Part shown: positions 4,623 to 49,444 of the stretch, one piece after another
How the letters are laid out: the number at the start of each line of letters is the position of its first letter
Position numbering within the stretch: the stretch's first letter is position 1
IMG/VR virus record: IMGVR_UViG_3300025151_003852
Location: 64,170 to 128,169 of that record
Length of the DNA stretch: 64,000 nt
From: a virus
Direction: 5' to 3' (one strand)
Translations under genes and position numbers: made by a program
The notes under the pieces: model-generated
The model's input: only the letters and a program-made list of their open reading frames with translations
Told to the model about the DNA's origin: nothing
Databases searched by the model: none

Positions 4623-5639
4623 ATGTCAAATCTTTTTAAAAAGGCAGCCGTATTCACAGACATACACTTCGGTTTAAAGAGCAATAGCATACAACATAAC
4701 CGAGACTGTAGTGATTTTGTGGATTGGTTTATTGAGAAATCAAAAGAAGAAGGCTGTGAAACATGTTTGTTCTTAGGTGATTGGAATCATCACAGAGCAA
4801 GTATTAACATGCATACCTTACAGTTTGGACTTAATGCGTTAGAAAAACTAAATGATGCATTTGAGAAAGTCTATTTCATAACAGGTAACCACGATCTCTA
4901 TTATAGAGACAAACGTGACATTCATTCAGTCGAGTGGGCTAAACATCTTAAAAACGTAGTCATTGTCGATCACTTTATCGAAGAAGGTAACTGTGTGATT
5001 GCTCCATGGTTGTGTGGTGATGATTATAAACTTCTTAAAAAGAAAAAAGGTAAGTATTTGTTTGCTCATTTAGAGTTACCGCACTTTTATATGAATGCTA
5101 TGATAGAAATGCCTGATCACGGTGAGACTAATGCTGACCATTTATCTCATTTTGAAAAAGTATTTTCTGGGCATTTCCATAAACGTCAAGCAAGAAAAAA
5201 TATTTGGTATATGGGTAATGCTTTCCCACACAACTATGCAGATGCAGGTGATGATGCTAGAGGCATGATGGTACTAGAATGGGATAAAGAACCTGAGTTT
5301 CATTCATGGCCAAATCAACCTGTATATAGAGTATACAAACTAAGTGAAGTATTAGATAACCCAGAAGGGTTGTTAATTAAGAATGCTCATGTTAGAGTAC
5401 ATTTAGACATCGATATATCTTATGAAGAATCGAACTTTATAAGAGAACAATTGATACCACAATATGATTTAAGAGAAATGTCATTGATTCCTGTTAAGTC
5501 TGATGAACATGCACAAGACTTAGCACCTGGTGAGATATCATTTGAAAGTGTGGATTCAATTATTATCGAACAAATTAAAAACATAGAATCTGATTTCTAT
5601 GACAAAGGTGTATTACTGGAGATTTATCAGTCTATATGA
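4623..5639 (+). CDS. Recombination endonuclease subunit, Mre11/SbcD-like (gp47)
   Basis: Metallophosphoesterase motifs TDIHFG, FLGDW, GNHD, SGHFH. Confidence 0.92.
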   Translation: MSNLFKKAAVFTDIHFGLKSNSIQHNRDCSDFVDWFIEKSKEEGCETCLFLGDWNHHRASINMHTLQFGLNALEKLNDAFEKVYFITGNHDLYYRDKRDIHSVEWAKHLKNVVIVDHFIEEGNCVIAPWLCGDDYKLLKKKKGKYLFAHLELPHFYMNAMIEMPDHGETNADHLSHFEKVFSGHFHKRQARKNIWYMGNAFPHNYADAGDDARGMMVLEWDKEPEFHSWPNQPVYRVYKLSEVLDNPEGLLIKNAHVRVHLDIDISYEESNFIREQLIPQYDLREMSLIPVKSDEHAQDLAPGEISFESVDSIIIEQIKNIESDFYDKGVLLEIYQSI

Positions 5640-7402
5640 TCAATTTAAAACATGTAACTCTCAGAAACTTTTTAAGTGTAGGATCAGTTACACAAGCAAT
5701 TGACTTGCAAAATGAGGAACTAACCCTCATCTTAGGTGATAACTTAGATTTAGGTGGAGACGGTGCTAGAAATGGTACTGGTAAGACTACTATTATACAA
5801 GCAATCAGTTATGCATTGTATGGTGTTCCACTTAACAATATCAAACAAAACAATTTAATCAATAGAACTAACGGCAAAGGCATGATGGTGACATTAGACT
5901 TTGAAGCCAATGGCGTTGAGTATCGTATTGAACGTGGACGTAAGCCTCATGGCATGAAGTTCTTTATCAACGGTGTAGATGAAGAAGACAACGAAGCACA
6001 GGGCGAAAATAAAGAGACACAACAAGTTATCGAAGACATCGTAGGCATGTCTTCAGTGATGTTTAGAAACATCGTTGCACTTAATACATACAGTCAACCA
6101 TTCTTAAGCATGACACAGGGACAACAACGTGATATCATCGAACAGTTGTTGGGTATAACTCTGTTATCAGAAAAAGCAGAGAAGATTAAAATCATTATAA
6201 AAAATAACAAAGAAGAAATTCAACAAGAAGAATTTAAAGTCCAAGCAATAGAAGAAGCAAACAAAAGAATTGAAGAACAAATAGATAGTCTTAGAAAGAG
6301 AGAAAGACTATGGACAGCAAAGACTAATGAAGATATTGGCACGTTAAAAGATAAGATTGAAACACTAGAAAAAGTGGATATCGATGCCGAATTACTTGGA
6401 CATAAACAACTTGCTGTCTATAATGCTTTAGTTAAGGATCATGCAGATATCGACAAATTAATGTTAAGAACTCAAAACGATATTGATAGAGAAACTAAGT
6501 CAATAACCAAGTTTGAAAAAGAATTAGATATACTAAAACAAAATAAATGTCACACATGTGGACAAGATATATGCGATGATACGCATATTAGAATCATGGG
6601 AGACAAAGAAGAAAGTTTATCAGAGGCTACTAAACATGCCGAAGAACTAGCAGAAGTTTATGTAGAATTAGAAAAAGAGAAACATTCATTGTTTGAGATA
6701 GGAGAGAAACCAGAGACTTATTATAGTTCTGAAGAAGAGGCTATCGAACATAAGAATAAAATCAAAGACTTGTCAGCACAAGTTAAACGCAAAGAGCAAG
6801 AAGAAAATCCATACACAGATCAAATATCTGAAATGGAGTCTAGTGCATTACAAGAAGCAAACTTTGATAAAGTAAACGAATTATCACGTATAGGAGATCA
6901 TCAGAAGTTCTTGTTAGACCTATTAACAAGCAAAGATTCATTTGTACGTAAAAAGATTATTGATCAAAACTTATCTTACTTAAATTCACGTTTAACAAAC
7001 TACTTAGACAAGATGGGTCTACCTCATCAAGTAGTATTCCAAAATGATTTGTCTGTAGAAATTACAGAATTGGGCAGAGAGTTAGACTTTGACAATTTAA
7101 GTAGAGGAGAACGTAACAGATTAATCTTAGGATTATCATTTGCGTTCAGAGATGTTTGGGAGAACTTGTACTTCCCAATCAATACATTGTTTATTGACGA
7201 GTTGATTGACTCAGGACTTGACACTATAGGTGTTGAGAATGCTATGGCTATTCTTAAAGACATGACACGTAGACGTAACAAATCTGTTTGGTTAGTGTCA
7301 CACAGAGAAGAATTAGCAGGCAGAGTTGCTAGTGTGTTACAAGTTATTAAAGAGAACGGATTCACTACATACAATTCGACTAGGGAGTTGGAGCAGTTGT
7401 GA
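5636..7402 (+). CDS. Recombination ATPase subunit, Rad50/SbcC-like (gp46)
   Basis: Walker A NGTGKTT, coiled coil with CHTC zinc hook, LSRGE signature, LFIDE Walker B, VSH. Confidence 0.92.
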   Translation: MINLKHVTLRNFLSVGSVTQAIDLQNEELTLILGDNLDLGGDGARNGTGKTTIIQAISYALYGVPLNNIKQNNLINRTNGKGMMVTLDFEANGVEYRIERGRKPHGMKFFINGVDEEDNEAQGENKETQQVIEDIVGMSSVMFRNIVALNTYSQPFLSMTQGQQRDIIEQLLGITLLSEKAEKIKIIIKNNKEEIQQEEFKVQAIEEANKRIEEQIDSLRKRERLWTAKTNEDIGTLKDKIETLEKVDIDAELLGHKQLAVYNALVKDHADIDKLMLRTQNDIDRETKSITKFEKELDILKQNKCHTCGQDICDDTHIRIMGDKEESLSEATKHAEELAEVYVELEKEKHSLFEIGEKPETYYSSEEEAIEHKNKIKDLSAQVKRKEQEENPYTDQISEMESSALQEANFDKVNELSRIGDHQKFLLDLLTSKDSFVRKKIIDQNLSYLNSRLTNYLDKMGLPHQVVFQNDLSVEITELGRELDFDNLSRGERNRLILGLSFAFRDVWENLYFPINTLFIDELIDSGLDTIGVENAMAILKDMTRRRNKSVWLVSHREELAGRVASVLQVIKENGFTTYNSTRELEQL

Positions 7403-8415
7403 GTCTAGCCTTGTGGCACTGGCATATTGAAGTAAGCAGTAAGTGTACTTTAAAGTGCCCACGATGTCCTAGACAAGAAGTTCCTGATACATTAGTCAGT
7501 ACTGAACTCAAACTAGATTTTTTTAAACAAAACTTCCCTGCGTTCTTTATATTAGAACACGTAGAGAAACTAACGTTCTGTGGTGACGATGGCGATCCTA
7601 TCTATGCACATGACTTCTTAGAAGTCATCCAGTATTTCAAATCAATTAAGCCTAGTATAGCAATCATTATCGTCACTAACGGATCATATAAAAATGAAGA
7701 CTGGTGGGCAAGACTAGCAGAAATGCTTGATGAGCAAGATCAGATTCACTTCAGTATCGACGGCTGGGACCATGAGAGTAATAATCTCTATCGAATCAAT
7801 TCTAATTGGTCTAGTATCATTACAGGCGTCTCTATCATCAATGATAAGTCTAATTGTTATACCGTATGGGACGCAATAGGCTTTAAGTTTAACGAAGATA
7901 AGATTGGCGACATGCAGAATTATGCTAGAGACTTAGGTTTTGATGCATTTCAATTAACACGTAGCACTAAGTTCGGTAAGATATACGAAGATTCTTATGG
8001 GAAAGAAGATGCTTTACAACCACGTGATGATCTGTTATCATCTAGTCATAGATTTGAAAGAGAAGTCTTTAAGTTTACAGATAAAACAATTAAAGAACCT
8101 TGGATGAAGACAAACATTAAGTTGTATGATGAATCTAAGTTAGTAGGAAATGAACGACCTCTATGTCATATCGGCAATAAAGGTAGTTACATTAATGCTA
8201 GGGGCGAATTTTACCCCTGTTGTTGGGTTGCTACAAGATATGGACACAACAATAAATGGAATGAAATTGGCAAGAAATATAATCTACATGAATTGAGGTT
8301 ACCCAAAATTGTAAAAGATAAATTCTGGGAAGCCGACTTTATACATGACTCTTACGAGTGCCAAACAAAATGTGCCCATCATAGGGTAGATAAAAATTAT
8401 GCCACCGAGTGGTAA
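7399..8415 (+). CDS. Radical SAM protein with SPASM/twitch-like C-terminus
   Basis: CTLKCPRC (CxxxCxxC), G..GDP, TNGS, FSIDG, C-terminal C...G..YPCC...C...C; GTG start. Confidence 0.88.
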   Translation: MSLALWHWHIEVSSKCTLKCPRCPRQEVPDTLVSTELKLDFFKQNFPAFFILEHVEKLTFCGDDGDPIYAHDFLEVIQYFKSIKPSIAIIIVTNGSYKNEDWWARLAEMLDEQDQIHFSIDGWDHESNNLYRINSNWSSIITGVSIINDKSNCYTVWDAIGFKFNEDKIGDMQNYARDLGFDAFQLTRSTKFGKIYEDSYGKEDALQPRDDLLSSSHRFEREVFKFTDKTIKEPWMKTNIKLYDESKLVGNERPLCHIGNKGSYINARGEFYPCCWVATRYGHNNKWNEIGKKYNLHELRLPKIVKDKFWEADFIHDSYECQTKCAHHRVDKNYATEW

Positions 8416-8432
8416 GGAGATAACTATATATA

Positions 8433-9020
8433 ATGCCATCACCATCTAAGAACAAAGGATCAGGATTTGAACGAGAAGTTGCAAAATTTCTCAGTGAGAC
8501 TTATGAAGAAAGTTTCATACGTGCTCCTGGCTCTGGTGCTTATGTAGGTGGCAAAAATCAAAATCGTACAGAGATTTTGCATGAAGGACAAATCAGAAGT
8601 TTCAAAGGCGACATTGTTCCCGGAGAAAGTTTTCACAAGTTAAATGTAGAATGTAAGTTCTACGCAGATTTCCCTTTTCATCAACTTCTTTCTGGTTCAT
8701 GCAGACAACTAGAAGAATGGCTCGACCAATTAATGGACGTGCATGATGAAGGGGATTTTGACGTTCTCTTTATGAAGTTTAATCGTAAAGGACGTTTTGT
8801 ATGTGTACCAAGTAAATACACATTCGTAAGTGATCAATTCATATATTACACATCAGACAATCATGGTGACTGGGTAATATTTGGATGGGATCACTTTTTT
8901 AAATTCAATAAAGATATATTCAAAGCATACGCAGGCGACACAGAGACCAACTCAGAACCCACCGATGACACCAAGTCAGAACTAAAACTAAACACAACAA
9001 CAACTACAGTAGACTTTTAA
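8433..9020 (+). CDS. Holliday junction resolvase (PD-(D/E)xK family)
   Basis: SKNKGSGFEREVA...GDI...VECK motifs. Confidence 0.75.
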   Translation: MPSPSKNKGSGFEREVAKFLSETYEESFIRAPGSGAYVGGKNQNRTEILHEGQIRSFKGDIVPGESFHKLNVECKFYADFPFHQLLSGSCRQLEEWLDQLMDVHDEGDFDVLFMKFNRKGRFVCVPSKYTFVSDQFIYYTSDNHGDWVIFGWDHFFKFNKDIFKAYAGDTETNSEPTDDTKSELKLNTTTTTVDF

Positions 9021-9030
9021 AATTTAGTAT

Positions 9031-9370
9031 GGTCGTAATTTGTACTCGACCCTCCTCGAGGATGCAGTAACCCTGCTGACGGATTTGGAGTAGTGTGTTA
9101 TACACAATAAACCGACAGGGCAATTGTTATGGTAGCAAACCCTGAATGAGTTCATATCTACTTTGATTTGATGATATGAAACATGCGTTGCTGAGAGGTC
9201 ATGCTCATTAGTATGATTGGCTCAACTACAGCCCAGTAAACATTACAGAGCAACCGGTTGCAATTGATTATAGTAACGTAATCGATTGGGGATAATCAAC
9301 ATGGATGACAGGCGGTAAAGAGGCTTGAATTTTTCGTGGTAGTGCTGAGTAGCACTACCATGGCTTCAAA
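9031..9370 (+). ncRNA. Putative large structured non-coding RNA, family unassigned
   Basis: No ORF >=60 aa. Near-continuous stems: 9031-35/9047-51, 9064-67/9073-76, 9093-97/9101-05, 9116-20/9140-44 enclosing 9124-29/9133-38, 9151-58/9173-80, 9187-92/9249-54 enclosing 9197-9205/9210-18, 9261-70/9279-88, 9336-46/9351-61; G-U wobbles favour plus strand. Confidence 0.6.
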
Positions 9371-9431
9371 ACGGTAATAAGACTTTAAACAATAACCATT
9401 AAGAACTTTTACTTTATCCTTTTAAATAAGA

Positions 9432-9462
9432 AATTACGAATGAACGAAGTGAATGAGTAATT
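9432..9462 (+). other. Tandem-GA / GAA-loop hairpin (ssDNA-type)
   Basis: AATTAC-GA-AT-GA-AC-GAA-GT-GA-AT-GA-GTAATT. Confidence 0.55.
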
Positions 9463-9481
9463 GGGTCTTCTTTGAAGACCC
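9463..9481. terminator. Hairpin between convergent transcription units
   Basis: GGGTCTTC-TTT-GAAGACCC; no long U-tract, so function is uncertain. Confidence 0.4.
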
Positions 9482-9499
9482 TTAAGAATGCTCTAGTGT

Positions 9500-9733
9500 T
9501 TAGAAGAATGGCATTTGAGTTTTCTTAGTAGTTTCTAAGTGTTCCTCAATTAATTTGTTTATGGCTTTACGTTCTGATAGGGACATGTTAAGGACATCTT
9601 CATATGAGGCACCACCACGCATGTACCAAGCCAAAGTCAAGGCGTTTGACTTTAAGCCCTGAGTGTATTCTTCATATTTTTGTATTAACTCCCTTATCCC
9701 TTCAGGGTCGAGTGAAAGGAGTCTTAGACGAAA
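9500..9733 (-). CDS. gp51-like baseplate/tail assembly chaperone extension, probably reached by -1 frameshift
   Basis: Open -1 frame ...RLRLLSLDPEGIRELIQKYEEYTQGLKSNALTLAWYMRGGASYEDVLNMSLSERKAINKLIEEHLETTKKTQMPFF*; no ATG until mid-frame; not in ORF track. Confidence 0.65.
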   Translation of the reverse strand, partial: FRLRLLSLDPEGIRELIQKYEEYTQGLKSNALTLAWYMRGGASYEDVLNMSLSERKAINKLIEEHLETTKKTQMPFF

Positions 9734-10584
9734 AAATCCGATGCGTTCAATGTGAATGGTTGCTTGTACTCATGTCCACATTCTTCTTTTTCTGGATCAT
9801 CTGAACCTGCGGTGCATACAATAGTTAGAGGCTTAATTGTTGATTTCTCTCTAAGTTGCGTGTTGTGATCTCTTATAGTTTCATAAGTTTTCGTGTCAGC
9901 ATTCTTTAGAAAGTCATGTATATGATCTGTATCAGTAACTTCTCCTTCAGGAGTAACAATTTTTACGATTGTTTGAGATAAGATTTCCATTGTGAGTACT
10001 GTAATATCTTTCAATGCTTCAGCACTTACTAAGGTACGTTCTTGTTGATCTTCAATAGCAGATAAGTTTTTGTATTTTGCTTGAATTTCAAACTGTTTTA
10101 GACCTGCTTCATTCATTTCTTTGTACTTTAAGGGCGCAAAATAAATTTCTAACTCATTCATTCTTAAAGGAGTTTCATAATCTCCTGCCCCCAATGATCT
10201 TAGTAGAACTTGTAGATTAATACCATATGTACCTTCTTCACCGCATTTCTCACATTTAGACTCAACATCAATAGTTTCTTGCCCACCTGCGGCTTTGATA
10301 GAGATTAATACTGTATCTAAATCAGTACTTAATAATGCCCAAGGATTCTTAATTGCTGGTACACAACTTTTAATAATCTCTACCATGGCTGTACCATTAA
10401 ACAAAGCATCTGGAGTCTTTGTCGTTATTTCATCGATTGCTGTCATAGGATAGACAGGTAATTCTTTGTTCTCAGGCCATTCGATGTCTTCAGGTGCGTA
10501 ACTTTCCCCACCTGACGGTAAAGAGATATGTACAGCGGGTCTACGAAAAAACTGTCGTAGCGGATTATTTTCATTAATTGTCAT
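9724..10584 (-). CDS. Baseplate hub assembly chaperone (gp26-like)
   Basis: LPS.G, PMTA.DE, D.D.VL..I..A..G, CxxC and C-terminal C...C.H......DFF pattern of gp26/gp51 family. Confidence 0.75.
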   Translation of the reverse strand: MTINENNPLRQFFRRPAVHISLPSGGESYAPEDIEWPENKELPVYPMTAIDEITTKTPDALFNGTAMVEIIKSCVPAIKNPWALLSTDLDTVLISIKAAGGQETIDVESKCEKCGEEGTYGINLQVLLRSLGAGDYETPLRMNELEIYFAPLKYKEMNEAGLKQFEIQAKYKNLSAIEDQQERTLVSAEALKDITVLTMEILSQTIVKIVTPEGEVTDTDHIHDFLKNADTKTYETIRDHNTQLREKSTIKPLTIVCTAGSDDPEKEECGHEYKQPFTLNASDFFV

Positions 10585-10620
10585 ATATGTTCCCCATAAT
10601 AAAATACGGTATTTTAAAAA

Positions 10621-10648
10621 ACTAAATACTAGTGTGATTATATTTAGT
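10621..10648. promoter_or_regulatory. Pair of oppositely oriented late promoters (ACTAAATA on + at 10621, on - at 10641-10648)
   Basis: Located between the divergent gp26-like and tape-measure genes. Confidence 0.55.
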
Positions 10649-10691
10649 ATCCCAAAACCATGCTAAATTAAAAATAATAGGACAACATTAG

Positions 10692-13600
10692 ATGGATGAT
10701 TTTTCACCTGAAGAAATGCGAGAATTTAATGAGAATTTAAATTCTATGAATGCCTCTTTGGGAGCATTAAATTCAGGACTACAAAATTTATCTAATACCC
10801 TAAATCAAACATCACAGGCAAATCAGGAAGCCGCAAAACAGTCAGAAGAAAACACAAAACAGCAAACATCTTCTACTAATAAAAAGACAGAATCAGATGA
10901 TAGAGCCGGCGAACAAATAAAAACAACTGCTGAAAAAATGTCAGGAGCATTGCGAACTGCTACTAGTGCAGTTGTTAGTTTTTCAGGTGCATTAGTTTCA
11001 GGTGTTGATGGTTTTGACAAGTATACTAAAGCAGTATCAGGTTTTGGAGACTCAGCAAAAGAAACTGGTGACGCATTAGGTGGATTCGGTAAGTTTTTAG
11101 GTAACGCAGTAAACATATTAGCCGAGTTTACAGTCGTTACAATGAAACAGGCTGATGCACAAAATCAGTTTGCAAAAGAAATGAACCGAATGGGTGCTAT
11201 TGTTGATACAACTACCCAAGGTTTAGCAGAACAAGCAAGAGCCGCAGGCGCAAGTGCAGGTGACTTACAAGAATTAGCCGTAGTTATTACTCAAAGTTCT
11301 CAAGCATTAGCATCGTTTGGTGCAGGTACTTCTGAGGGTACAGCAAAAATGCTGGAAGTCTTCAGATTATCTGATGACCAAGAAAGAGAAATGCGTAGAT
11401 ATGGGTACACTCTAAGAGAAGCCCAAGAACAACAAGCATATTACATAGAATTGCAAAGAACATCTGGTATTAATATGCAAGCCAGAGAGATGACTGAACA
11501 AGATGTTCGTATTAAGTCATTACAGTATGCAAAAACATTAAACACATTATCAGAGTTAACAGGTATTCAAGCCGGACAACTCAAAGAAGAACAAGCCGCA
11601 GTACAAGCAGACTTACGTAATAAGATTCGTAATATACGTGATCAAAATGATATTGAAAGACTTAAGCAACAGTTAGACGGCAACATTACTGCTGAAAAAA
11701 GAAAATCGATAGAAGCAGAAATAAGAGCAAGAGAAGAAGAAATACAAGTAAGAGTCGATGCAGGTAACCAATTTGCAGGTTTACTAGGCAGAGACATGGC
11801 TGCCAAAGTGATGAACGTTATTGGTACTGGGGCATTTGATGAGAATACAAAAGAACTAGCAAACTTAGGTCTTAATGCCGCAGAACTTAAAGAAAGATTT
11901 GCAGGCTTGACTGCTGGTTCAGACGAATACAAACAAGCAGTTGCCGAAACAACAGGTGAACTCGTAGGTGGTGTTAGACGAAACGTAGATAGGTTCGGTA
12001 AGTCTATGGAACTTGCCGCTAACGCAAGTGAGATCGGCGCCGCAGTAGGTATTAACGAAAGAACAACAGATACAGCCAGACTTTTTGATAGCCAAGATCA
12101 GGCTACGAATAGAGTATTAGAAAGTTTTGATAAAGTATCAGAGGCTACACAAGAAGGCGTAGATACACAAAAAGATTTGGCCGCTGAACTACAAGTATTT
12201 GAAACTAATGTTAGAACAGCCGCAGATGAGTTTTTAAATTCGATTAATCCGTTTACAGGTGGATTAGGATTAGGCACTATTGCACTAGGCGGTTTTACAA
12301 TAGCATTAGGAACCGCTACAACTGCATTATATGGCATGGCTGGTTCAGGAGCAGGAAGTGGCATGTTAGACATGTTCACCGGCGGCGGTAACGGTGGCGG
12401 TAAACGAGCAAGAGGGTTAAGAGCGGCCGGCAACTTCTTATCAAAAGGTGTTAGTAGATTAGCCGTACCACTAGCCGCAGGAATGTCTATTTATAGTGGA
12501 GTATCAGAAGCAAGTGCAGGACGAGATGAAGCAGATGCACAACTAGCCCAAGTAACAGACGCCGAAGACTCATCAGTAGCAGAAATATATCGTGCTAAAA
12601 AACAGCACGAAATAGACACTAAACAAGCCAACAGAAAGGGGGCCGGTACAGCAATCGGCGGTACTGGTGGAGCCATTGCAGGTGCGGCCGCAGGTGCAGC
12701 CATAGGTTCGTTTATTCCAATCATTGGAACAGCAATTGGTGGTATTATCGGCGGAGCCTTAGGAGCATGGGGCGGATCTTCAGCAGGAAGTGCAATAGCA
12801 GAAAACTATCTAAGTCCAGAAGACTTAGAAATGTATAATGCTAGTGATGCTGAATATGCTTTAATGACTGATGAAGAAAAAGAAAAATATAATGAGATCA
12901 GAGATGCTATTAAGGAACAAACACGATTACAAGAAGAAGAAGCAACACGTTTAGAAAAAGCATATAATGACAATTACGAGGAAATACAGAAGATAGGTCT
13001 ATATGACAAAGACTTGCTTGGTAATAGTGAAGTAAACTTTGAAATGCTTGCCCAAATGAGAGACGATGGTACTCTCTCACAAGAAATGCTTGAGGCTATG
13101 CTATATGATAATGATTTAAGTGAAGCAGACACGGCATTAGTGCAGAAACAGTTAGATTTGATGAAAGCAAACGCCGAAAAAGACGAAGTAAAAGAAAAAG
13201 AAAAAGAAGTAGCAGAAGTAAAAGAAGAAGAAGTAGGTGGCAGAACATTAGATATGTCTCCTGAAAATCTAGCCAAAATATTTGAGGCAGATATAAAAGC
13301 AGAAGAAAAAAGAAATGCAGAAAAACAAGCAGAACAACTTGCACTCGCACAAGCAAAAGAAGAAACTGTTACAGAACAAATTACACCTGAAGTTGTTGCT
13401 AATGCATTAAAAGAAACAGGAAGCGGCGCACCTATTCCAGGAGTAGTTGATACAGAACAATTATTAGCAACAACAGACGTTGTTGAAAATATGATAGCAG
13501 ATGCAGGGAAAGCCATTAGTACCCCTGCATTAGAAGAAATCACAACTACAGCAGAATCTGTCCCTATAGATGATATTTTAAAAGAAGTTCAAGTTTCTTC

Positions 13601-48235: not shown

Positions 48236-48325
48236 GGAAGATTGGCAGAGTGGTTGAATGCACTGGTCTTGAAAACCAGCATACGAGAGATCGTATCGAA
48301 GGTTCGAATCCTTCATCTTCCGCCA
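48236..48325 (+). tRNA. tRNA-Ser(TGA)
   Basis: Acceptor GGAAGAT/ATCTTCC, anticodon stem CTGGT-CTTGAAA-ACCAG, long variable arm, GGTTCGAATCC, encoded CCA. Confidence 0.95.
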
Positions 48326-48877
48326 TCACTTGTGACCAATTAACATAAATCTATTATAACTAGAACTCCCGTAGTCGAAATATTTTGTTTCTGAGTATAG
48401 GAGTTCTGACATTTGAAATCTCTCTTTTAATACTTCTATAGACGGACAAGGGTTCGATATTAGCCACGGGTCTCTGTGTTCTGTAACATCACTAGACTGA
48501 ATACATACTAATGCATTTGGGTCAACATTAGCATACCAGTCATCTTTCATATGCTCTACACTACAGTTAATTACTACGTTATGTCCTTGCAAATCGTAGG
48601 TATCTGCGTTTGCACATGTGTTTCTAATCTGTGAGTTTCTGCCTAACATAAAGCCCTGACATAGCATATCAGCGCCTCTAATCGCCTCTGAGTCAATATC
48701 TATGCCTAAGATGTGTTGATACTTGTTTTTATTACGAGTTAAAAGCATAAAACCTAATAAATTATACCAGCACCCAGGCACTGCAACTACAGCATCTTTT
48801 GGTATATACGGTTCGATAGTTTCACACAACCAAAGTTTAGATTGTGTTTGACCATGTGAGAAAGATAATAGATCCAT
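48326..48877 (-). CDS. Class I SAM-dependent methyltransferase-like protein
   Basis: GQ..SKLWL, G.WY, GIDID, VINCS.EH, RFMLIG. Confidence 0.7.
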   Translation of the reverse strand: MDLLSFSHGQTQSKLWLCETIEPYIPKDAVVAVPGCWYNLLGFMLLTRNKNKYQHILGIDIDSEAIRGADMLCQGFMLGRNSQIRNTCANADTYDLQGHNVVINCSVEHMKDDWYANVDPNALVCIQSSDVTEHRDPWLISNPCPSIEVLKERFQMSELLYSETKYFDYGSSSYNRFMLIGHK

Positions 48878-48904
48878 AATACTATTTAATGGGTAAAAAA
48901 ACCG

Positions 48905-48933
48905 TTGACAAAAAATAATGATGCTGATATAAT
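48905..48933 (+). promoter_or_regulatory. Strong sigma70 promoter for tRNA cluster
   Basis: TTGACA-N17-TATAAT with extended -10 TG; ACTAAATA follows at 48938. Confidence 0.85.
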
Positions 48934-48956
48934 GACTACTAAATATATGAACAAAT

Positions 48957-49032
48957 GCTCCAGTAACTCAGTTGGTAGAGTAACTGATTTGTAATCAGTA
49001 GGTCGGCGGTTCGAATCCGTCCTGGAGCTCCA
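48957..49032 (+). tRNA. tRNA-Thr(TGT)
   Basis: GCTCCAG/CTGGAGC acceptor, ACTGA-TTTGTAA-TCAGT, encoded CCA. Confidence 0.95.
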
Positions 49033-49049
49033 TATTTTAGAGGGAAAGT

Positions 49050-49262
49050 TTGAACCTTACAGAGAAGATTAATGATAGAATGGATCAATTGCAAGCCTGG
49101 ATGGAGAGCAATTATCACTTAAATCATGCAGAAGAAGTCTACGAACACACTCTTAATATCAGTAAGTTTTGGTCTGTTTTATCAGAAGAAGACAGAGAAT
49201 ATATACAGTGTGCCCAAGATGCTATCGAAGAATCTACTCCATGGGGAGATCCAAATAAATGA
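49050..49262 (+). CDS. Hypothetical protein between tRNAs
   Basis: 70 aa, TTG start with GAGGG RBS. Confidence 0.55.
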   Translation: MNLTEKINDRMDQLQAWMESNYHLNHAEEVYEHTLNISKFWSVLSEEDREYIQCAQDAIEESTPWGDPNK

Positions 49263-49265
49263 AAG

Positions 49266-49341
49266 GGGGCCGTAGTTCAGTTGGGAGAACGTCTGGTTTG
49301 CAACCAGAAGGTCGGCGGTTCGACCCCGCCCGGCTCCACCA
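49266..49341 (+). tRNA. tRNA-Ala(TGC)
   Basis: GGGGCCG/CGGCTCC acceptor with G3-U70, TCTGG-TTTGCAA-CCAGA, encoded CCA. Confidence 0.95.
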
Positions 49342-49357
49342 GTGTTCAAAAAGTTTT

Positions 49358-49444
49358 GCCCGAGTGGTGGAATTGGTAGACACAAGGGACTTAAAATCCC
49401 TCGACCTTACGGTCATGCCGGTTCAAGTCCGGCCTCGGGTACCA
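49358..49444 (+). tRNA. tRNA-Leu(TAA)
   Basis: GCCCGAG/CTCGGGT acceptor, AGGGA-CTTAAAA-TCCCT, variable arm, encoded CCA. Confidence 0.95.

Follow-up and report, generated by a model that had tools for sequence, protein, structure and literature searches.

According to the sections of PMC13037366 on DNA mini-hairpins, these structures have the consensus GCGNAGC or GCGNNAGC, in which any N is tolerated and GTTA is also accepted, and they are found at the priming sites of G4, St-1 and alpha3, at ssiA of RSF1010 and in the hairpin promoters of N4; d(GCGAAAGC) melts at 76.5 °C, compared with 39 °C for RNA. For phage T4, the passages of PMC3016281 on oriF and oriG describe a transcript that makes a persistent R-loop in an A+T-rich unwinding element; this frees the non-template strand from pairing, so that the gp41/61 primosome can reach it. 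By what rules R-loops form, and what the other T4 origins are, is named in that review among the open questions. Here we analysed a stretch of 64,000 nt from the IMG/VR virus record IMGVR_UViG_3300025151_003852 (hereafter the window), whose source is assigned to a T4-like jumbo phage from marine samples. In an intergenic region of the window, a hairpin with tandem G·A mismatches (hairpin 1) and a second, perfect hairpin (hairpin 2) follow a structured non-coding RNA and an AT-rich spacer (Table 1). A preliminary description, made from the letters of the window, had proposed this arrangement as a candidate RNA-primed replication origin.

Sequence, conservation and family rules of the G·A hairpin

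The + strand of hairpin 1 reads AATTAC-GA-AT-GA-AC-GAA-GT-GA-AT-GA-GTAATT, and its letters and position were exactly those first described. Both G·A tandems are spaced by two Watson-Crick pairs. Hairpin 2, GGGTCTTC-TTT-GAAGACCC, follows with 0 nt between the two, and its 8-bp stem was likewise confirmed. An inverted-repeat finder detected only the outer 6-bp arms of hairpin 1, as had been anticipated. With RNA parameters, the + strand 31-mer took exactly the proposed fold at -3.1 kcal/mol (10 of 200 shuffles equal or better), and the two hairpins together reached -15.0 kcal/mol, which 0 of 200 shuffles matched. DNA parameters gave the outer stem only, at -0.5 kcal/mol with 101 of 200 shuffles as good; these sets assign no extra stability to GNA loops or to tandem G·A, and hence are no test of stability as DNA. 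The - strand stayed at about 0 kcal/mol under both DNA and RNA parameters, and the mismatches there would be pyrimidines, which agrees with the earlier claim that the fold works on one strand.

We then considered how common such sequences are in the record. The 19-nt pattern of the preliminary description matched once in the window. The short 11-12-nt core is not rare by itself, with 4 matches in 128 kb against 0.82 expected, and among these matches only hairpin 1 continues to a second tandem and a 6-bp stem. C(GAA)G hairpins with a stem of at least 4 bp occur nowhere else in the 128 kb, and they were accordingly ruled out as a general feature of the genome. Hairpin 2 was not among the three terminator-like sites in a consensus scan of 8500-11000, and fewer than five T follow its stem; in relatives just 2-4 T follow it, as read by eye. 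We also rejected it as a generic terminator of these phages, since A(GNRA)T loops are the rule in their other long hairpins. At 9471-9473, in the loop of hairpin 2, the window has TTT, and the close relatives L001-L003 have AAA (L001:5038-5040) on an identical stem; on comparison of these letters, the inversion is what template switching at a DNA palindrome would give.

Relatives were collected by two scans. For the neighbouring nuclease gene, a protein-level pattern matched 241 stretches; a relative is encoded by 236 of them, and 80 loci entered the comparison. At least 118 further stretches came from a scan with a 14-nt piece of the upstream RNA as anchor, for 198 loci in total. The anchor is present in 175 of the 198 loci, and 116 of these are non-identical. 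Both borders were found in 76 of 78 loci, in which the gene order is constant and the intergenic region measures 474-556 nt. The exact 19-nt pattern occurs in 28 of the 80 loci. Elsewhere the stem has changed on both sides, from AC/GT to GC/GC in L018-L020 and from AT/AT to TT/AA in L026-L028, the latter with one C-G pair turned into T·G. At greater distance the hairpin is shorter, AAGAAC GA AC GAA GT GA GTTCTT, and abuts a second hairpin AGATGAAC GAA GTTCATCT. The relatives L033-L080, which have this shorter form, also carry an extra conserved element, CCCG..GATAAATGAA..CGGG with T's after it, in the interval from hairpin 2 to the gene end (e.g. L044:5040-5075); it is absent from the lineage of the window.

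For covariation we used a gap-free alignment (A3) of 83 triloop versions, 52 of them distinct. The results showed changes on both sides in 9 of 9 Watson-Crick pairs; 83.3% of the cells were paired, compared with 27.6-41.5% when the partner was slid, and the observed covariation score was matched by 0 of 500 shuffles. Most of the unpaired cells (about 17%) belong to irregular outer stems or, in the long form, to its second G·A step; the G and A letters of the inner tandem, four in all, never vary (columns 11, 12, 20 and 21). The second stem pair, which is G-C in a GC-GNA-GC core, is A-T in the window and in 40 of the 52 distinct rows, and G-C in 11. In hairpin 2 the stem letters vary among relatives with the pairing kept, and a C(GAA)G loop stands at its place in 70 of the 116 non-identical relatives. 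Five large related records hold one copy in three cases, a second, unchecked core match in one and none in one. The element is held at one place over deep divergence, with the neighbouring protein down to 64% identity. The hairpin is conserved with compensatory changes in more than 100 related jumbo-phage contigs, and we regard this covarying conservation as the decisive evidence that it is more than a chance sequence; the pattern with compensatory changes that the preliminary description had proposed to look for in syntenic relatives is present.

To define the rules of the family, we applied a strict parser to 116 distinct 3' segments, which gave a regular hairpin in 99 and 42 unique hairpins; 14 of the 17 rejected segments show the apical GA-NN-loop-NN-GA core by eye, and L059, L116 and L196 do not. 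Of the 42 unique hairpins, 40 have exactly 2 bp from the loop to the first tandem, and in 37 a C-G pair closes the loop. The spacing from tandem to tandem is 2 bp in 14 of 16, and 53 of 58 tandems stand in a 5'-Y-GA-R-3' context on each strand. Watson-Crick pairs outnumber wobble pairs by 346 to 4. The loops were GAA (19), GATA (6), GTA (4), AAA (3), GCA (2) and GGTA (2), with single cases of GGA, GTTA, AATA, GTCA, ACC and TCTC, the last two probably misplaced by the parser. Of the 12 four-base loops, 11 have the form R-N-Y-A, and GNRA is not among them. A C-G pair on a loop of 3 or 4 bases, whose first G and last A are able to form a sheared pair, is the closing arrangement of the mini-hairpins, and several relatives carry the exact core GCGAAGC, GCGATAGC or GCGTAGC. 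Other hairpins (stem of at least 7 bp) in 941 kb of the same clade mostly have A(GNRA)T loops; C(GAA)G, found 70 times at hairpin 2 of the module, is outside the 40 commonest loop types elsewhere in these 941 kb. Judged from these letters, the loops appear to follow the rules of DNA mini-hairpins and not the GNRA rules of RNA, and the signature can be put as one to several predicted sheared tandem G·A spaced exactly 2 bp under a C-G-closed GNA or GNNA cap. RNA too forms sheared tandem G·A and G..A-closed loops, so the earlier label "DNA-specific" is too strong.

Occurrence in other phages and in coliphage RB16

Outside the clade, we searched for the core CGAACGAAGTGAG together with its closing pair, that is the 15-mer ACGAACGAAGTGAGT. 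This 15-mer occurs in at least 112 stretches of viral contigs, compared with 71 for the reversed-letter control in the whole collection. At 84 newly examined loci, 89 matches had no RNA anchor within 260 nt upstream, and three of them (L241, L243 and L275) resemble the modules of the jumbo clade by a second hairpin. Among the matches listed, the context was intergenic for 64 of 81 distinct matches and, in the control, for 11 of 51 (Fisher p = 7e-11), and at least five further stem pairs were present in 23 of 81 compared with 1 of 51 (Fisher p = 5e-5). The hairpin has no preferred orientation to neighbouring genes: by crude open reading frame calls, the upstream gene was on the same strand in 25 cases and on the opposite strand in 36, and the downstream gene in 27 and 29. 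Copies cluster within 400 nt, with 50 same-strand and 12 opposite-strand neighbour pairs, and other phage records hold 1 to 8 copies compared with 0-2 for the control. Inverted hairpin pairs flank AT-rich cores in other phages, and at L238 (270-320), beside a terminase gene, one hairpin consists almost wholly of four to five steps of 2 bp plus G·A. Arrays of 7-9 cores in 0.5-0.8 kb were seen in unrelated viral contigs, one of them in a giant-virus bin (L207:5390-5900, L233 and L231).

The neighbouring genes are often replication or recombination genes, including gp55 with SbcD, a helicase beside gp55, Sak4 beside an exonuclease and RNase H, and also terminase and tail fibre genes. Rfam gave 0 matches in 14 non-jumbo loci with the motif. 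Cultured carriers are the Pseudotevenvirus coliphages RB16, Lw1, EC-W2 and vB_EcRAM-01, SSU5-like phage-plasmids and others. In SSU5 (L360:2010-2400) and related phage-plasmids, two G·A hairpins lie within an outer stem in a Y shape, beside an RNase H gene. Non-coding sequence of about 330 nt begins with them and closes, on the same strand, with a terminator-like hairpin and its T run; across 12 cultured phage-plasmid records the identity of the element is 94-100%. The SSU5 non-coding stretch and the RNA of the jumbo phages have a few short words in common, in a different order. Literature searches, with supplements outside their reach, found no paper on the core sequence in a relevant context; the widespread intergenic occurrence of the core in unrelated phages, its orientation neutrality and the RB16 modules are new here.

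Coliphage RB16 contains three near-identical palindromic intergenic modules (L357:1446-1716, L362:1386-1707 and L363:1458-1728). In each, an AT-rich core of about 95 nt, with the inverted repeat AACTACAT/ATGTAGTT inside it, separates two G·A hairpins of one strand from one or two of the opposite strand; in a by-eye reading, outward sigma-70-like -35/-10 boxes flank the modules. One module lies between rnh and gene 55 and one between gene 3 and a hypothetical gene; the remaining one occupies the promoter region of uvsY, with gene 24 on its other side. In the T4 record, oriF is annotated at the 5' end of uvsY with genes 25 and 26 next, and the jumbo-phage module lies just beyond the gp26-like gene. 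The second annotated T4 origin, oriG, is inside gene 34 at 2.2 kb from rnh, and the rnh module of RB16 was rejected as its counterpart for this reason.

The AT-rich spacer, the upstream RNA and the gene neighbourhood

The spacer between the RNA core and hairpin 1 measures 57 nt and has 19.3% GC, which places it in the lowest 0.4% of the 57-nt windows when this percentile, like the GC skew, is computed over the whole 128-kb record; the AT-rich stretch first described before the hairpin is therefore real. Among relatives, 105 unique spacers of 21-82 nt have a mean GC of 21.9%, so that AT-richness is kept and the letters are not. In this property the spacer agrees with the AT-rich unwinding element of a T4-type R-loop origin. 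A helix closing the spacer (AAACGG / CCGTTT) was considered and not used: some relatives exchange C-G for A-T, the window and others have a mismatch, and the partner is absent in L077 and L079.

For the upstream RNA, RNAalifold predicted 48 pairs from 58 unique intergenic regions, 24 of them with compensatory changes; the G·U wobbles are consistent with the + strand, and invariant sequence blocks are present. Metatranscriptome contigs, which carry no strand or end information, fell within 8000-11000 in four runs of four studies (X1, X9, X10 and X12). The X1 contig covers 8952-9289, over the RNA core, at a depth of 38, the highest locally; X9 covers 9448-9699, and 9313-9413 is covered by no contig. 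A sigma-70 scan of 8500-11000 showed no promoter-like site near 9021, MotA-type boxes being outside that search. At the gathering level, Rfam found nothing but four tRNAs in the whole window, and at E<=10 nothing credible in 8950-9750.

The gap of 480 nt between the flanking reading frames contains no coding sequence and no Rfam match, and the hairpins lie at the junction of convergent transcription units (Table 1), with the SbcC-like gene 2 kb and the PDDEXK nuclease gene 0.4 kb away. A search for DNA similarity to cultured phages around the locus gave a single irrelevant match of 107 nt. Among cultured phages, those with the nearest version of the nuclease gene, SCTP-2 and the PA5oct group (42% identity), have neither the intergenic region nor the RNA; the functional tie to the "resolvase" that had been suggested is thus left with adjacency only. 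Far from the locus, at 48236-49444 (+) of the window, four tRNA genes (Ser, Thr, Ala and Leu) form a cluster.

Table 1. Positions of the hairpins and of the surrounding features in the window
Feature	Coordinates	Strand	Remark
Source record			IMG/VR virus record, 128 kb, 37% complete by CheckV; the window is its right half
SbcC-like gene	5636-7402	+	
Radical-SAM gene	7399-8415	+	between SbcC-like and nuclease genes
PDDEXK_15 / "RusA-like resolvase" nuclease gene	8433-9020	+	
Structured non-coding RNA, ~350 nt	9021-9374	+	upstream of the hairpins; possible functional partner
AT-rich spacer, RNA core to hairpin 1	9375-9431	no strand	candidate unwinding element or variable linker
Hairpin 1	9432-9462	+	6-bp outer stem, two tandem G·A/A·G mismatches, C(GAA)G triloop
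Hairpin 2	9463-9481	+	perfect 8-bp stem, TTT loop
Short conserved reading frame	end at 9500 (...MPFF, stop)	-	after gp26-like gene
T4 gp26-like hub or chaperone gene	9724-10584	-	

Interpretation and comparison with known systems

We tentatively read the hairpins as an ssDNA signal, plausibly an origin or a priming site, which is coupled here to the upstream RNA and the AT-rich tract, and we hold this a little short of an even chance. The structure, the strand specificity, the conservation, the family rules and the distribution outside the clade are observed; from here on we infer both the action as DNA and replication initiation as the process, and we propose that the family acts on the single-stranded DNA of the G/A-rich strand. 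In such a mechanism, the upstream structured RNA would be transcribed into the AT-rich spacer, and a persistent RNA-DNA hybrid, or plain breathing of the 19%-GC tract, would unpair the non-template (+) strand. The two abutting mini-hairpins could then fold on the unpaired + strand, where they may keep the region open or offer the primosome or primase an SSB-free entry. The outcome would be an origin or a single-strand-initiation signal of the ColE1, T4 oriF or G4 kind. Because the order on the + strand is structured RNA, AT-rich tract and hairpins, the hairpins would stand on the strand displaced by the hybrid, and this polarity, with the hairpins on the non-template strand of the upstream RNA, is compatible with a T4-type R-loop. 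The RNA-primed origin first proposed is partly supported: the hairpin and the conserved AT tract stand, and this polarity and the RB16 module at the uvsY site are in its favour; the convergent junction and the GC skew give it no support.

Several points weigh against this reading. The preliminary description had suggested a check for a GC-skew inflection at the locus; the cumulative GC-skew minimum lies about 7.5 kb to the left (about window 1.8 kb) at a switch of the coding strand, in a record that is 37% complete, and is uninformative for the site; by GC skew, the sole proxy, no replication signal maps to the hairpins. Only one of the three RB16 modules is syntenic with an origin, at the uvsY / oriF place, the canonical core is absent from the T4 genome, and oriF and oriG, as described in the passages of PMC3016281 that treat them, need no such hairpin. 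The jumbo module is one-sided: of 84 clade modules, only 1 has an opposite-strand core within 1.5 kb. Convergent genes would bring positive supercoiling that opposes opening, and the RB16 modules lie between apparent divergent promoters. A mobile promoter cassette could account for the three copies in RB16, the SSU5-like arrangement hints at a use as RNA there, and the orientation statistics rest on crude reading frame calls. To these is added the evidence for a transcribed hairpin, which is weighed below.

A bolder form of the ssDNA reading is doubtful, and we think it rather unlikely: that the hairpins are an undescribed, widespread, strand-specific ssDNA signal for the start or priming of phage replication, and that its coupling here to a 350-nt RNA opening the AT tract as an R-loop makes a new kind of RNA-activated origin, in which the logic of ColE1 and that of T4 would be combined. 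Candidate examples of such a signal would be the three palindromic modules of RB16-like coliphages, the SSU5-like phage-plasmids and the giant-virus contigs.

Nearly as likely as the ssDNA signal, and a real possibility, is that the hairpins are the 3' tail of the upstream RNA, transcribed through the AT-rich linker, since they are co-oriented with a covarying RNA and stand directly after it. Hairpin 1 might then be a protein-binding or tertiary-contact platform of stacked sheared G·A, and hairpin 2 might end or protect the transcript. The hairpins lie directly 3' of the strongly covarying RNA (24 pairs) on the same strand, in the 175 of 198 loci with the anchor; the fold obtained with RNA parameters equals the observed one, and the few G·U-type wobbles that do occur on the + strand, 4 against 346 Watson-Crick pairs, fit a transcript as well. 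A convergent gene junction is where transcript ends are expected, the X1 contig lies over the RNA core, and the SSU5-like hairpins adjoin a non-coding stretch that ends in a terminator. The loop rules do not fit this explanation, because the four-base loops are never GNRA and C-G triloops dominate, whereas the ordinary hairpins of the same phages are GNRA. Hairpin 2 lacks a U tract and is not terminator-like, the helix from spacer to core lacks consistent support, and the RB16 hairpins are placed between apparent outward-facing promoters. Moreover, the hairpin is found in unrelated phages without the RNA, antisense as often as sense.

An improbable alternative is a role at the DNA level other than replication, such as a recombination or cleavage hot spot with SbcCD-like or resolvase-like substrates, a packaging or strand mark, or the footprint of a mobile promoter or hairpin cassette. 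The PeSL stem-loops, as the relevant part of PMC4122927 presents them, are of the types GN-loop-CN, A3-4G3-loop-C3T3-4 or AGNA-loop-TCNT, lie upstream of an early promoter and occur in many copies. The near identity of the RB16 copies, including the AT core, and their abutting promoter-like boxes, the point of this comparison, resemble such mobile regulatory cassettes. Their GC or A3-4G3 types are unlike the G·A hairpins, and an element that is single-copy in 3 of 5 large related records and keeps its place over deep divergence does not belong to that class. Modules near 55-47-46 clusters, the closeness of the window hairpin to the SbcC-like and PDDEXK nuclease genes and the inverted loop of hairpin 2 (TTT versus AAA) between close relatives would suit a DNA-level role of this kind, but the cultured relatives carry the nuclease gene without the element. 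A double-stranded operator, in which an imperfect inverted repeat serves a dimeric protein, is very improbable in spite of the dyad symmetry and the well-conserved type-B arms (AAGAAC/GTTCTT), because a duplex site would impose neither stems that covary with pairing kept nor invariant positions that are the mismatched G and A of one strand in a Y-GA-R pattern.

Replication origins are experimentally known for very few phages, and those of T4 relatives are not recognisable from sequence. If the ssDNA reading is true, an easily searched hairpin that conforms to the physical chemistry of DNA mini-hairpins and recurs between genes of unrelated phages would be a testable sequence marker of places where DNA opens; RB16, with three copies, grows on laboratory E. 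coli, which makes the idea directly testable. If the hairpins are RNA, they would represent a new stacked-G·A motif with which large phage RNAs of an orphan class end.

Tandem sheared G·A pairs are known in RNA from kink-turns and loop-E-like internal loops. These motifs share with the phage hairpins the 5'-GA-3'/3'-AG-5' tandems, the Watson-Crick flanks and the Y-GA-R context; the 3-nt bulge of a kink-turn is absent here, where the internal loops are symmetric 2x2, and there is no match to an Rfam family. The ColE1-type origin has a structured primer RNA II and a primosome assembly hairpin on the displaced strand. The logic, in which a structured RNA leads to a hybrid at the origin and to a single-strand hairpin on the displaced strand, would be the same at the jumbo locus, with no sequence or structural relation between the two; the transcript priming of ColE1 is also mentioned in a passage of PMC3016281. 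The R-loop origins of T4 are alike in an RNA running into an AT-rich tract and in a non-template strand to be unpaired, and oriF (uvsY-25-26) adjoins baseplate-hub genes as the jumbo locus does, with RB16 having a module in the uvsY promoter region. T4 origins require neither structured RNA nor hairpins, whereas the jumbo locus has a conserved 350-nt RNA fold and convergent genes.

The promoters of the N4 virion RNA polymerase, with a 5-bp stem, a GGA or GAA loop and a single-stranded template in the account of PMC13037366, are also one-strand DNA hairpins with a GNA triloop. They are without tandem G·A steps, and transcription from the + strand hairpin would be antisense to the RNA gene. The closest likeness in the cap is to the mini-hairpins at the ssDNA initiation sites of G4, St-1, alpha3 and RSF1010 ssiA (CCGAAGG), which, in the sections of PMC13037366 on them, agree in the C-G closing pair, the G..A loop of 3-4 bases with free middle bases, GTTA included, and the function on one strand, and are located at priming sites in the known cases. 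In the window copy the pair below the closing pair is A-T and not G-C, the phage genomes are double-stranded, and priming here is only proposed. To this known mini-hairpin, the phage family adds one to four tandem G·A steps at a fixed spacing of 2 bp.

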